A DNA stretch of 64,000 bases from IMG/VR virus record IMGVR_UViG_3300027973_000030, positions 1-64,000 of that record. The stretch is one strand, 5' to 3'. The stretch comes from a virus. Below, piece after piece: positions 16,667-19,851 of this stretch (position 1 is its first letter; each line of letters begins with the position of its first letter). The position numbers were made by a program, and so were the translations under genes. The notes below the pieces were generated by a model. The model worked only from the letters and a program-made list of their open reading frames with translations. It ran no database searches and was not told the origin of the DNA.

Positions 16667-18871
16667 TTATCTTATATTTTTAAAAGCATTTCTAGGTGGT
16701 TGATTGTTCCCACTACTTTTCTTAGTATTTCCCATATGTCTAAAGGGGCTCCAATTTAATTTACTAAATTTTTGGGAGTTAACCAAATTTTCATTTGTAA
16801 CTTCTACACGTTTAGTTAATCCACGGTTAGATTGTTGCACCTTTGCAAACGCTATAAGAGCACAAAAGGTCACTAATCTATCCACGTTTAGTCCATCTCT
16901 GTATGCTTGCATCTCTTTAAGTAGCATAATGTCTGGTATACGTTCTACTCCATAAATAGTTTTTACTATTTCCCCGTCTGGTTTAGTTTCATGATCTAGT
17001 TCTTCTTTGGTAAATTCAATACCATAAGATAAAACTGTACCCTTAAAGAGCGTACCTACGTTCTTCCACCCGTATTCTTGGAACACATTACGATTTGCTC
17101 CTATATCTTTTAAGAAGAGTATCATATCTTTAGGTACTAAATAGCGTTGTTTCTTCTTACTTATCATATACTGTATGAACAAAGCTACGTTATTCTCCAC
17201 TATAGTCCAGGCATTATACCATTCTATGAGTAGTTCTAAACGCTCATGAGTTTTATTAAGATCATCAAAACGTCCACACCAACTAGCTACGATCATATCA
17301 CGTTCTATGGTATTAGTTACCTTACCGTCACCATCATCTTTTATAACTTCCACAGGATTCTTATAGATGTATATAGAACATAACGAGTCTGACGTGGTGG
17401 TCTTTCCCTCACTAACTGGATCCACAGAACCATAGTACATCCCAAATGGTGGACTTTTGTGTGGTCTTTCGTATATACACAGCACTCCTTCTTTATCTTC
17501 AGTCTTCTTAGATACAGGAAAATCCATAATAGGAATCTTCCTAGAAGGTTTATCTATAATCTTTCCTTCAGCATCTCTAGATAGTTCTAAGTATTCTACT
17601 GGATATTCTTTATCTTGTATACGTTGCATTTGTTTAGCTACAAGATGTGGAGGAAATACACTCACCTTACGTGTAGCAAAAGCTTCTTCTATATTTCTAG
17701 GTTGCTGAGATACTGTTAACTGATAAGCTGCCGGATCTAACTGACGTTTCATTCTAACAAACTCAGTTTCTAAAGCTTCTAAAGCTTCTTCCACTTTACT
17801 GTTACCGTATTGATCTATGTAAGGTGGCATTGACCACTGCTCAGGAATAAATAATCCTGTTAACCCTATTGTACCATCTTTATCTATAAGATTAGACTCT
17901 ACACCAAAGAAACCATTTTCTTCTGGATGTAAAATATATTCTTTCATAGGTTCACACTGATCAAGGTCTCCCACTGATCCTGCAGCTATAAACTGTCCTG
18001 TAATAATATGACCAGACTTTAATGCTGGTTTCATAAATCCATAGGTGTCATCCATCTTAGGAGCAATACCTGCTTCCTCGTGAAAGAAATAAGTTACAGG
18101 TCCACCGACACCATGTGTAGGATCTTTCTCAAATGAGTATAAGTTAATTGTAGATTTTAAACCTTTATATGTATCACGTCCTCCTTGTCTCACTTTAATC
18201 TGTTGGTTCCATGCTCCCACCTTATCTGGTTCAGCTGGTCTATACCATGCAGTGTGTTCATTTAAAAAGTTACGGTATTCATTAAGAAACTTCCAAGATC
18301 CTTTCTCATTGATGTAGTCTTTTAGACTAGCTCCTATTTTTAATACGGCACCTGGTTCAAATACCCATTGGTTAATTAACTTAGCCATATGGAAATAAGA
18401 AGATGCTATCTGACGTTTCTTTAGAATAATTGCATGTTTCCAGTTTAACTCTGCTAAGTGTTCATATAGTGCCATATGATACTGAGCATCTCTCACCTTT
18501 GCAAAGTCAAAACGTTTTTCTTCTTTATCATATATGGGTAAGAAATTCAACCACATGTAATAATCTCTAGATATATACCATGTGTCTATAGCATCTTTTA
18601 TAATTATACCATTACGACATTTAGCTTTTTGGTCATCCCAATAATGTATAAAGTCTTTTGTTTTTATAGGTGCTGCACAATAGTACCCTTGCTTCTGAAA
18701 CTTACGAGCTTCAGCATTAAATATTAAACTACTCTCAGTGAAGTTATACTGACCGGGTTCTTTAAATATAGAACGGACAAAGTCTCTAAATTCTTCTCTT
18801 GTATAGAAAGTAGTGACAGTCCATTCTCCCAATTCGTAAGTGGGTATTTCTATAAATATGTTATTTTCCAA
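16667..18871 (-). CDS. terL: Terminase large subunit (734 aa, TTG start)
   Basis: Walker A-like LKKRQIASSY, Walker B FFHEEAG and RNase H nuclease GSVDP...SDSL...IVENN. Confidence 0.92.
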   Translation of the reverse strand: MENNIFIEIPTYELGEWTVTTFYTREEFRDFVRSIFKEPGQYNFTESSLIFNAEARKFQKQGYYCAAPIKTKDFIHYWDDQKAKCRNGIIIKDAIDTWYISRDYYMWLNFLPIYDKEEKRFDFAKVRDAQYHMALYEHLAELNWKHAIILKKRQIASSYFHMAKLINQWVFEPGAVLKIGASLKDYINEKGSWKFLNEYRNFLNEHTAWYRPAEPDKVGAWNQQIKVRQGGRDTYKGLKSTINLYSFEKDPTHGVGGPVTYFFHEEAGIAPKMDDTYGFMKPALKSGHIITGQFIAAGSVGDLDQCEPMKEYILHPEENGFFGVESNLIDKDGTIGLTGLFIPEQWSMPPYIDQYGNSKVEEALEALETEFVRMKRQLDPAAYQLTVSQQPRNIEEAFATRKVSVFPPHLVAKQMQRIQDKEYPVEYLELSRDAEGKIIDKPSRKIPIMDFPVSKKTEDKEGVLCIYERPHKSPPFGMYYGSVDPVSEGKTTTSDSLCSIYIYKNPVEVIKDDGDGKVTNTIERDMIVASWCGRFDDLNKTHERLELLIEWYNAWTIVENNVALFIQYMISKKKQRYLVPKDMILFLKDIGANRNVFQEYGWKNVGTLFKGTVLSYGIEFTKEELDHETKPDGEIVKTIYGVERIPDIMLLKEMQAYRDGLNVDRLVTFCALIAFAKVQQSNRGLTKRVEVTNENLVNSQKFSKLNWSPFRHMGNTKKSSGNNQPPRNAFKNIR

Positions 18872-19150
18872 TTACTTAGTTGAGGTTAATTTATGTATTT
18901 CAACCACATCTCCTTTACACTTATGTAATAGATGCAAAAGAGTTTCAAAACTTTTACTACGCAATACACCATCTAGTTGAGAATTATCCCAATACTTGGT
19001 ATACATATCTCTAGGGATAGCGTTCCATAGTTTGGTATAAGGATTAAAATGAAACACCCAATCATGCATATACTCTTCTGTATCTGATAACTCAGATACT
19101 GGAGCAAACTCTTTAATGTTTTCGTAATCTGTGTAAACTTCTTGTTTCAT
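18872..19150 (-). CDS. Hypothetical protein (92 aa, start MKQEVY...)
   Basis: ATG at 19150 after an A/T-rich leader; the longer track start runs into the tRNA-like gene. Confidence 0.65.
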   Translation of the reverse strand: MKQEVYTDYENIKEFAPVSELSDTEEYMHDWVFHFNPYTKLWNAIPRDMYTKYWDNSQLDGVLRSKSFETLLHLLHKCKGDVVEIHKLTSTK

Positions 19151-19164
19151 AATTTTTAATTTAG

Positions 19165-19333
19165 CTGTAGAGGGTGGACTCGAACCACCAAGGTGAGATT
19201 CAATTGATAACACTACGCTTGCAAGCTGGTGGTCTACCCCATATTATCAATCTATTTCTATATCACCGCCCACGAGACAGGTGGGTACGTTTGCCGGGGT
19301 CATGCTGAGACAACCCAATTTCGTCACTCTACA
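19165..19333 (-). tRNA. Non-canonical, expanded tRNA-like RNA with anticodon GTC (Asp), 169 nt
   Basis: Acceptor TGTAGAG/CTCTACA plus G73; T-arm GGTGG-TTCGAGT-CCACC; anticodon arm CCCAC-CTGTCTC-GTGGG; D-stem ACG/CGT with an inserted hairpin; ~79-nt variable region. Confidence 0.75.
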
Positions 19334-19338
19334 ATGTT

Positions 19339-19851
19339 CTATTGATCATAAGCTAGGTTCTGTCCTCCTCTAACTTGTGATTGTTGTTCATCTTGTAAAT
19401 CTCTATAAGTAGCTTTGAAAGATTGTCTTATTTGATCAAACTTAGCAGCAGCATTTATCAGTGCTGTAATGTTACCATCTCTACCATGTTCAATTTCTGT
19501 AGTCTCCATATACTTAGCAAGCCTCTCCACCATGCTTTTCATACCCATGTAGGCACGATAGGTGGGAGTTTGATATAACTTCTCACAAAACTTAATAGCA
19601 TTGCTAATAAGCTCGTCATCCGTTGAGAAATCAGCATCCACCTCTGCAAGTATTAACTCCTCTTTATCAGTCTCTGCAACATCAAAGAAAGGATTTAAGT
19701 CTGGGTTGGGACAAGTCATATAAAAGACATATGCAAATACCTTCATATATTCTAAAGGATGTTCAACAATTATGTCGTTTAAAGACTTTAATGTGTAACA
19801 ATGTTCACTTGGAACAACCTGTCCGTTCTGTATATCAAATAATCTTACCAT
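19339..19851 (-). CDS. Conserved packaging-module protein, possible terminase small subunit (170 aa)
   Basis: Helical protein upstream of terL ending QVRGGQNLAYDQ; positional inference. Confidence 0.5.
   Translation of the reverse strand: MVRLFDIQNGQVVPSEHCYTLKSLNDIIVEHPLEYMKVFAYVFYMTCPNPDLNPFFDVAETDKEELILAEVDADFSTDDELISNAIKFCEKLYQTPTYRAYMGMKSMVERLAKYMETTEIEHGRDGNITALINAAAKFDQIRQSFKATYRDLQDEQQSQVRGGQNLAYDQ

Follow-up and report, generated by a model that had tools for sequence, protein, structure and literature searches.

The variable-region hairpin of class II transfer RNAs (tRNAs) measures about 13–21 nucleotides (nt). Here we describe a 169-nt tRNA-like RNA with a far larger variable domain, encoded on the minus strand of a lake phage genome within a 64,000-nt stretch (positions 1 to 64,000 of IMG/VR record IMGVR_UViG_3300027973_000030; this whole stretch is called the window below). 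With bacterial class II tRNAs, especially tRNA-Leu (RF00005), the RNA shares the 7/5 division of acceptor and T branches, U8, a 3-bp D stem, the G18 G19 region, a standard T loop and an arm in the variable region. The likeness also appears in genome searches, where the next-best matches of our covariance model of the family (R1) in host genomes are tRNA-Leu and tRNA-Tyr. In contrast to class II tRNAs, it has a 76-nt branched domain, an extra hairpin in the D-loop, a GUC-type anticodon loop and a pyrimidine at position 37; the GUC loop fits none of the Leu, Ser and Tyr tRNAs, and G73 fits Ser only. Bacterial tRNA-Asp(GUC) shares with it G73, G34, U35, C36, C38 and G2-C71, whereas U1-A72, the lack of a conserved G10, pyrimidine 37, a variable position 33 and the class II body set the RNA apart.

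Among other RNAs to which it can be compared, tRNA-Sec is likewise long-armed, and is charged and then converted on the RNA; it has 8/5 or 9/4 acceptor/T branches, a UCA anticodon that decodes UGA, and a simple hairpin as its arm. We use this likeness as a working analogy and claim no membership. The stable RNAs species 1 and 2 of phage T4 (rnaC and rnaD), which have no assigned role, lie among the phage tRNA genes and are co-processed with them; a full cloverleaf with identity marks is not known for them, and we liken them to the present family by description only. The tRNA-Asn of the indirect pathway, charged by aspartyl-tRNA synthetase (AspRS) and amidated by GatCAB (accessible part of PMC4206432), has U1-A72 and G73 in common with our RNA, and for the latter, charging with aspartate and subsequent amidation while on the RNA would be plausible on chemical grounds. 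The RNA differs in having the anticodon GUC, not GUU, and in looking unfit for decoding, whereas tRNA-Asn delivers asparagine to the ribosome. Allo-tRNAs, as the accessible part of PMC5389517 describes them, occur in bacteria and phages and combine unusual long arms with an anticodon that does not fit the body, but their acceptor/T branches are 8/4 or 9/3 against the 7/5 of this family.

A tRNA-like RNA family outside Rfam

The RNA is a genuine member of a large, uncatalogued family of tRNA-like RNAs of Bacteroidota bacteria and their phages. Sequence and coordinate check agree on a gene that forms a complete cloverleaf with two extra folded arms (Table 1). After the acceptor 5' strand come U8 G9 and then the 3-bp D stem; the variable domain consists of a 5-bp base helix, a conserved internal loop, an 11-bp helix and two apical hairpins. 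The cloverleaf is reproduced by the minimum-free-energy fold, at an unremarkable energy (z = -1.5). Since the energy alone is not significant, the case for the RNA rests on comparative evidence.

Table 1. Coordinates of the RNA gene, its parts and the flanking genes in the window (ORF, open reading frame; aa, amino acids)
Feature	Coordinates	Strand	Evidence or remark
Whole tRNA-like RNA gene	19165..19333	minus	sequence; R1 172 bits, E 8.7e-43
Acceptor stem 5' strand (U1, G2 ...)	19327..19333	minus	pairs with 19166-19172, perfect 7 bp
Optional 20-nt D-loop hairpin	19297..19316	minus	loop repeats TGTCTC of the anticodon-like loop
Anticodon-like arm	19269..19285	minus	5-bp stem; all 5 pairs covary
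Anticodon-like loop CTGTCTC	19274-19280	minus	G34 U35 C36 U37 C38
76-nt branched variable domain	19192..19267	minus	helices covary
13-mer GGGGTAGACCACC	19228..19240	minus	small G-C hairpin with bulged A, invariant
Perfect 10-nt palindrome GCTTGCAAGC	19217..19226	minus	apical hairpin; perfect palindrome at this place in 100/104 viral members
T arm, TTCGAGT loop	19173..19189	minus	both-side changes at 3/5 stem pairs
Discriminator G73	19165	minus	then C; CCA not encoded
Upstream 170-aa ORF, family not recognised	19339..19851	minus	TAG stop 5 nt before RNA
Downstream 92-aa ORF, family not recognised	18872..19150	minus	ATG 14 nt after RNA; syntenic homologue in locus L037
Terminase large subunit	16667..18871	minus	phrog_6681, E 8.9e-66

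Homologues were gathered from viral contigs by three patterns. Exact matches to a 24-mer of the T arm and acceptor were full homologues in all 25 cases, which places the element far beyond chance. A degenerate pattern of the D arm and anticodon arm gave 92 viral contigs, and one combining the 13-mer with the T loop gave at least 118; a single match among those listed (L103) looked like a chance hit in GC-rich coding sequence. The 150 viral elements parsed collapse to 104 distinct sequences of 147–177 nt. In their alignment 95.2% of pairs are standard and 36 of 51 pairs have changed on both sides, values that 0 of 500 column shuffles reach; sliding the partners by 1–3 columns leaves at most 54% paired. 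The acceptor stem is paired in 100% of cells, with both-side changes at 6/7 pairs, and the stem of the D-loop hairpin has such changes at 4/6. The first-pass annotation had proposed a covariation check of the inserts, in which a lack of conserved pairing would point to a decaying pseudogene; the helices of the variable domain covary.

Standard tools pass over the element. ARAGORN called no tRNA, whether run on the window or on all 131,294 nt of the phage; the first-pass annotation had remarked that scanners often miss forms so oversized. Rfam gave no match to the element at gathering score, nor anything relevant at E up to 10 with the tRNA, tmRNA and YrlA models included. R1, whose training set includes the window sequence, has one match only in the 131 kb; together with the ARAGORN result this makes the RNA the sole tRNA-shaped gene of the phage. 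A blastn search of 50,697 deposited phage records with the window stretch and two other family members returned no match. We found no description of the RNA family in the literature, the supplementary tables of PMC10690425 (candidate viral structured RNAs) lying outside the part of that source covered. The first-pass annotation, drawn from the letters of the window, had described a 169-nt tRNA(GUC)-like cloverleaf with D-loop and variable-arm inserts and had suggested an undescribed class of non-coding RNA. Sequence, coordinates and family covariation bear out the cloverleaf, and the class is a real conserved family without an Rfam entry. The observation is borne out in full: pyrimidines at 37 and 38, U1-A72, G73, GUC and the lack of an encoded CCA are all seen in the window, with a D-loop hairpin of 20 nt and a variable domain of 76 nt (about 79 nt in that annotation). 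Whatever its role, this is a large structured family of ~150–200 nt, outside Rfam and missed by standard tRNA finders, and a complete 131-kb phage keeps it as its only tRNA-shaped gene.

The tRNA core of the family is nearly invariant. U1-A72 is found in 103/104 viral and 67/67 bacterial members, G2-C71 in 104/104 and 66/67, and G73 in 104/104 and 66/67; these, like U8 G9, lie outside all search patterns, except that the acceptor 3' strand was within the pattern for the first 25 sequences. Every member (104/104 viral, 67/67 bacterial) has the loop consensus Y-N-G-U-C-Y-C, so that G34, U35, C36 and C38 are fixed and position 37 is always a pyrimidine, although the invariance of part of the loop, as of the 13-mer and the TTCGA core, is partly built in by the way these sequences were gathered. 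Position 33 is not U in 26 of the viral and 15 of the bacterial members. Purine 37 and U33 are near-universal in decoding tRNAs. With pyrimidine 37 in all 171 members and U33 lost in about a quarter, the RNA is very probably not an ordinary decoder, which supports the non-translating character proposed for it at first sight.

The arms are far less constant. Branches of 7/5 occur in all members, whereas a D-loop insert is present in 62 of the 104 viral sequences, in several unrelated types, and the variable domain has at least two architectures. In the lineage of the source phage itself, at the same site and between the same two flanking genes, the domain has shrunk to a 23-nt hairpin in eight loci and to ~45 nt in four. 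ARAGORN calls tRNA-Asp(gtc) in all three loci with minimal arms that were tested, one of which matches the Rfam tRNA model at 41.7 bits. Arms are thus optional while identity marks are kept, and we regard the tRNA core as the constant part and the giant arm as an accessory. That tRNA bodies tolerate modular expansion arms in the D-loop and variable region bears on tRNA evolution and on the engineering of tRNA scaffolds. The minimal-arm relatives (L037:870-968, minus strand; L034, L050, L054, L061, L080, L086, L087) have ~115 nt of additional intergenic sequence separating the RNA from the downstream gene. In this sequence, which is missing in the window and has no Rfam match, a stem that covaries between loci encloses a conserved loop and is followed by a terminator-like hairpin.

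Two elements of the big variable domain stand out. The 13-mer, which served as search handle in both the viral and the bacterial searches, is also present in 75 of 93 members gathered with a pattern that lacks it; covariation is silent on it because it never varies. The T stem, the acceptor strand and, by GAC with GUC, the anticodon-like loop were considered as pairing partners of the 13-mer and dropped, since they vary without compensation. The 13-mer is followed in 100 of 104 viral members by a perfect palindrome of even length, of which there are 14 versions. The pair that flanks its central GC covaries (U-A 78, G-C 15, other 7); bacterial members mostly lack the palindromic hairpin. A two-base hairpin loop being unlikely, the palindrome might serve the pairing of two RNA molecules. 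The palindromes could equally be hairpins born as perfect inverted repeats through template switching.

RNA libraries contain the element. Contigs covering it come from four runs on record as freshwater metatranscriptomes, in four studies, several of them from relatives and not from the source phage. A contig of 156 nt matches 19178-19323 with a single mismatch. On the element the contigs reach a depth of 8–100, on the ORF upstream 2–3 and on the one downstream 0, a zero that carries no weight in either direction. We take these contigs as a hint of a stable, unspliced RNA. They run through both inserts and show no joints, which speaks against the removable inserts once proposed for this RNA.

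Bacterial copies beside an AsnC-like regulator

The 13-mer pattern matched 120 stretches in species-representative genomes. R1 was run on 80 of them and gave strong matches (31–151 bits) in 66 loci, all with Bacteroidota-type titles (Chitinophagales, Cytophagales, Saprospiraceae and others), and no match in the remaining 14, all from other phyla. Cultured strains named in these titles include Spirosoma luteum DSM 19990, Flectobacillus roseus LMG 24501, Arcicella gelida DC2W and Lacihabitans lacunae CECT 7956. Of 151 Bacteroidota genomes sampled evenly across the phylum, 14 had a strong R1 match, and one more copy was cut by a contig end.

A divergent ORF of ~156 aa, of the Lrp/AsnC family, lies upstream of the RNA (median 154 nt) in 45/65 bacterial loci. 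Its best NCBIfam match is AsnC, at 155–164 bits against ~40–53 for Lrp and below the curated cut-off of 227. A close orthologue of this regulator is present in 14/14 RNA-positive genomes; the sample contains 16 such orthologues, 11 of them adjoining the RNA. The Bacteroidota-type motif TAnnTTTG occurs within 80 nt upstream in 29/66 bacterial loci, at scattered positions.

Other neighbours of the bacterial copies were recorded. Just downstream of the RNA there is a TrmB-type methyltransferase gene (PF02390) in eight loci, with nine ORFs (for example L186:6457-7170), and DUF819 is among the other downstream neighbours. One genome has a class IIb synthetase gene, LysRS-like by score group (G076:C6:179691-181106), with the RNA ~250 nt downstream on the same strand. 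A distant homologue of the regulator (36–41% identity) was noted in ten RNA-negative genomes (L310-L319; G017, G027, G032, G052, G056, G060, G096, G100, G128, G152), at least nine of which are without a GatB match; in several of these loci a HemD-like gene precedes the homologue, with a zinc-peptidase gene facing it.

A candidate aminoacyl carrier and competing readings

The reading that we prefer, at a probability of roughly 0.4, is that the RNA is a non-decoding tRNA-like carrier which would be recognised by host AspRS and possibly amidated by GatCAB. In the accessible part of PMC9976931, G73, G34, U35, C36 and C38 are the five strong aspartate determinants, to which bacteria add G10, G1-C72 and G2-C71, and G1-C72 is crucial in bacterial tRNA-Asp; that source and the accessible part of PMC4206432 have bacterial amidotransferases (GatCAB) relying on U1-A72. 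All five strong determinants are present in the window, in 104/104 viral members and in at least 66/67 bacterial members. Five aspartate marks together with the amidotransferase mark, in an RNA whose loop is that of a non-decoder, make charging by AspRS, possible conversion by GatCAB and exclusion from the ribosome the most economical reading.

Beyond the presence of the identity marks, the steps are those that we infer. Host tRNA-processing enzymes would cut the RNA from a late polycistronic transcript and CCA would be added, and the RNA would fold into an L shape. Host AspRS would recognise it through G73, G34, U35, C36 and C38. The invariant U1-A72 would act as the GatCAB mark of tRNA-Asn and tRNA-Gln, by which the attached aspartate would become asparagine, and pyrimidine 37, the loose position 33 and the bulky arms would keep the product off the ribosome. 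In Bacteroidota the adjacent AsnC-like regulator would control the RNA, and the phage copy would be an unregulated supply for the infected cell. We consider the whole scheme rather unlikely: a dedicated, ribosome-excluded carrier of chimeric identity on which a discriminating AspRS (through GUC, C38 and G73) and GatCAB (through U1-A72) make asparagine, under an AsnC-like switch in Bacteroidota, captured by many phages as an 'auxiliary metabolic RNA', with a palindrome that in the phage type might pair two molecules. If the carrier reading is right, a tRNA-derived RNA would have been kept for work off the ribosome in common by a bacterial phylum and its phages. To our knowledge, this would be the first known case of phages carrying a metabolic helper as RNA and not as protein.

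Several observations weigh against the aspartate carrier. Class II AspRS approaches its tRNA from the side of the variable loop, where a large arm might clash. The same big arm is dispensable, being a 23-nt hairpin in the eight related loci. The bacterial determinant G10 is not kept (A10 in the window; G in 46/104 viral members), and with G1-C72 replaced by U1-A72 in 103/104 viral members a further aspartate mark is missing. GatB is found in 14/14 RNA-positive genomes and also in 126/151 sampled genomes, and so does not discriminate. Genes of AsnB type over cut-off occur in 11/14 RNA-positive genomes and 7/14 RNA-negative controls, and AsnA in none of these 28. No dedicated synthetase was found in the RNA-positive genomes, which have the same three class IIb synthetase genes as 8/14 controls. 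The controls were taken at regular intervals and likely belong to other classes, so phylogeny confounds the comparison. Where regulator homologues lie away from the RNA, their neighbours are peptidases, transketolase, HemD, biotin carboxylase and others, with no asparagine link. The RNA-library contigs cannot show the ends, strand or level of the RNA, and DNA carry-over is possible in them. An obligatory role in asparagine supply was tried separately and set aside: loss of Asn synthetase or an extra AspRS was expected in RNA-positive genomes, and neither holds.

Two alternatives would do without charging, and the invariant nucleotides count against both. An uncharged mimic acting by binding, as decoy or regulator for a reader of GUC loops (AspRS, or an anticodon nuclease aimed at GUN tRNAs), by which phages would blunt a host response, is unlikely. 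A loop decoy needs no invariant G73, U1-A72 and G2-C71 at the acceptor end, although it would suit an anticodon-like loop that is conserved yet non-decoding, and the TGTCTC of that loop recurs in the D-loop hairpin of 32 of the 62 insert-bearing members, as if to offer a second binding site. Its spread in phages (at least 149 viral loci) and its place as the only tRNA-shaped gene of a complete phage also fit a decoy, but in bacteria the copies lie on the chromosome and have an AsnC-like regulator of their own, and no defence genes were seen beside them among the neighbours examined. The anti-nuclease decoy of the first-pass annotation, taken alone, may hold, although it would leave the chromosomal, regulator-linked copies unexplained. 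Identity nucleotides are likewise not needed if the tRNA shape only directs RNase P and RNase Z to cut the late transcript upstream of the terminase genes, or if the RNA has a part in packaging. We regard such a role as highly improbable, even though 5 nt separate the RNA from the late ORF before it and 14 nt from the late ORF after it (spacings given at first sight, with which our coordinates agree), at a place two genes upstream of the terminase large subunit. In favour of such a role, too, no promoter of sigma-70 type and no terminator flanks the RNA on its own strand, in a scan that gave 27 sites against 32.8 expected and that does not cover Bacteroidota-type promoters. Most family members lie away from terminase genes. 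The packaging role once suggested loses ground for the same reason, since terminase adjacency is particular to the lineage of the source phage, 66/149 viral loci are near tRNA genes, and the bacterial copies are separate genes beside a regulator.

The other two alternatives keep the charging and change what is charged or what it is for. A carrier charged by seryl-tRNA synthetase (SerRS) and not by AspRS is quite improbable. A class II body with a long variable arm and G73 is the classical serine signature, as in tRNA-Sec, and the window has five of the seven items of the bacterial set in the accessible part of PMC9976931 (G73, G2-C71, R4-Y69, C11-G24 and a large variable region); across the viral family R4-Y69 holds in 94/104 and C11-G24 in 57/104, but C72 and G30-C40 are absent, with A72 in 103/104 and the pair 30-40 being U-G, A-U or U-A. 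Leu-type bodies turn to serine identity upon a change of A73 to G73 according to the same part of that source, and the eight next-best R1 matches examined in host genomes were tRNA-Leu (4), tRNA-Tyr (2) and tRNA-Pro (2), none tRNA-Asp. SerRS, however, does not read the anticodon, which leaves the invariant G34, U35, C36 and C38 unexplained. In phages, the RNA starts 3 nt past the stop of a full-length serS in one 183-kb record; serS is nonetheless found in just 2/43 long RNA-carrying viral records and adjacent in 1, and a search for more phage serS genes beside the RNA returned only the two starting contigs. Class IIb synthetases, the class searched for in the same records, are found in 0/43. 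The same-strand tRNA just upstream is a tRNA-Ser in 39/67 upstream-neighbour cases, though these cases may stem from a handful of shared array orders and not from separate events. A working tRNA-Asp isoacceptor with nothing more than added expansion segments is very improbable. Every strong aspartate determinant is present, the minimal-arm relatives are called tRNA-Asp by ARAGORN and in one case matched by Rfam, and GAT and GAC make up 5.9% of the codons in the long ORFs of the phage, but pyrimidine 37 in every member, the loss of U33 in about a quarter and U1-A72 instead of G1-C72 argue otherwise. Further, a normal tRNA-Asp stands alongside in 23 loci of phages with tRNA sets. These ordinary tRNAs are 72–76 nt long, with the loop CTGTCAC or TTGTCAC, U33 and A37, and 14 of their 15 distinct sequences begin with G; the family is distinct from canonical tRNA-Asp across bacteria and phages.

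The phage locus and neighbouring tRNAs

The record of the source phage is rated complete, at 131,294 nt and 34% G+C. A search of the whole phage found no class IIb synthetase, amidase, Asn synthase or AsnC-type gene, so that under the carrier reading the phage copy would depend on host enzymes. Downstream of the RNA, the 92-aa ORF precedes the terminase large subunit gene and a portal gene.

Same-strand tRNA genes were counted within 150 nt of the RNA to give the 66 viral loci mentioned above. In such arrays (L001-L172) the tRNAs most often found ahead of the RNA are tRNA-Ser(tga) and tRNA-Ser(gct), together 39 cases, and tRNA-Cys(gca), 15 cases, a pattern that may reflect only a few shared array orders. 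In the source phage, a gene for a PD-(D/E)XK-type exonuclease (phrog_298, PF12705; 20147-20983, minus strand) belongs to the same string of genes as the RNA and stands two genes upstream of it.

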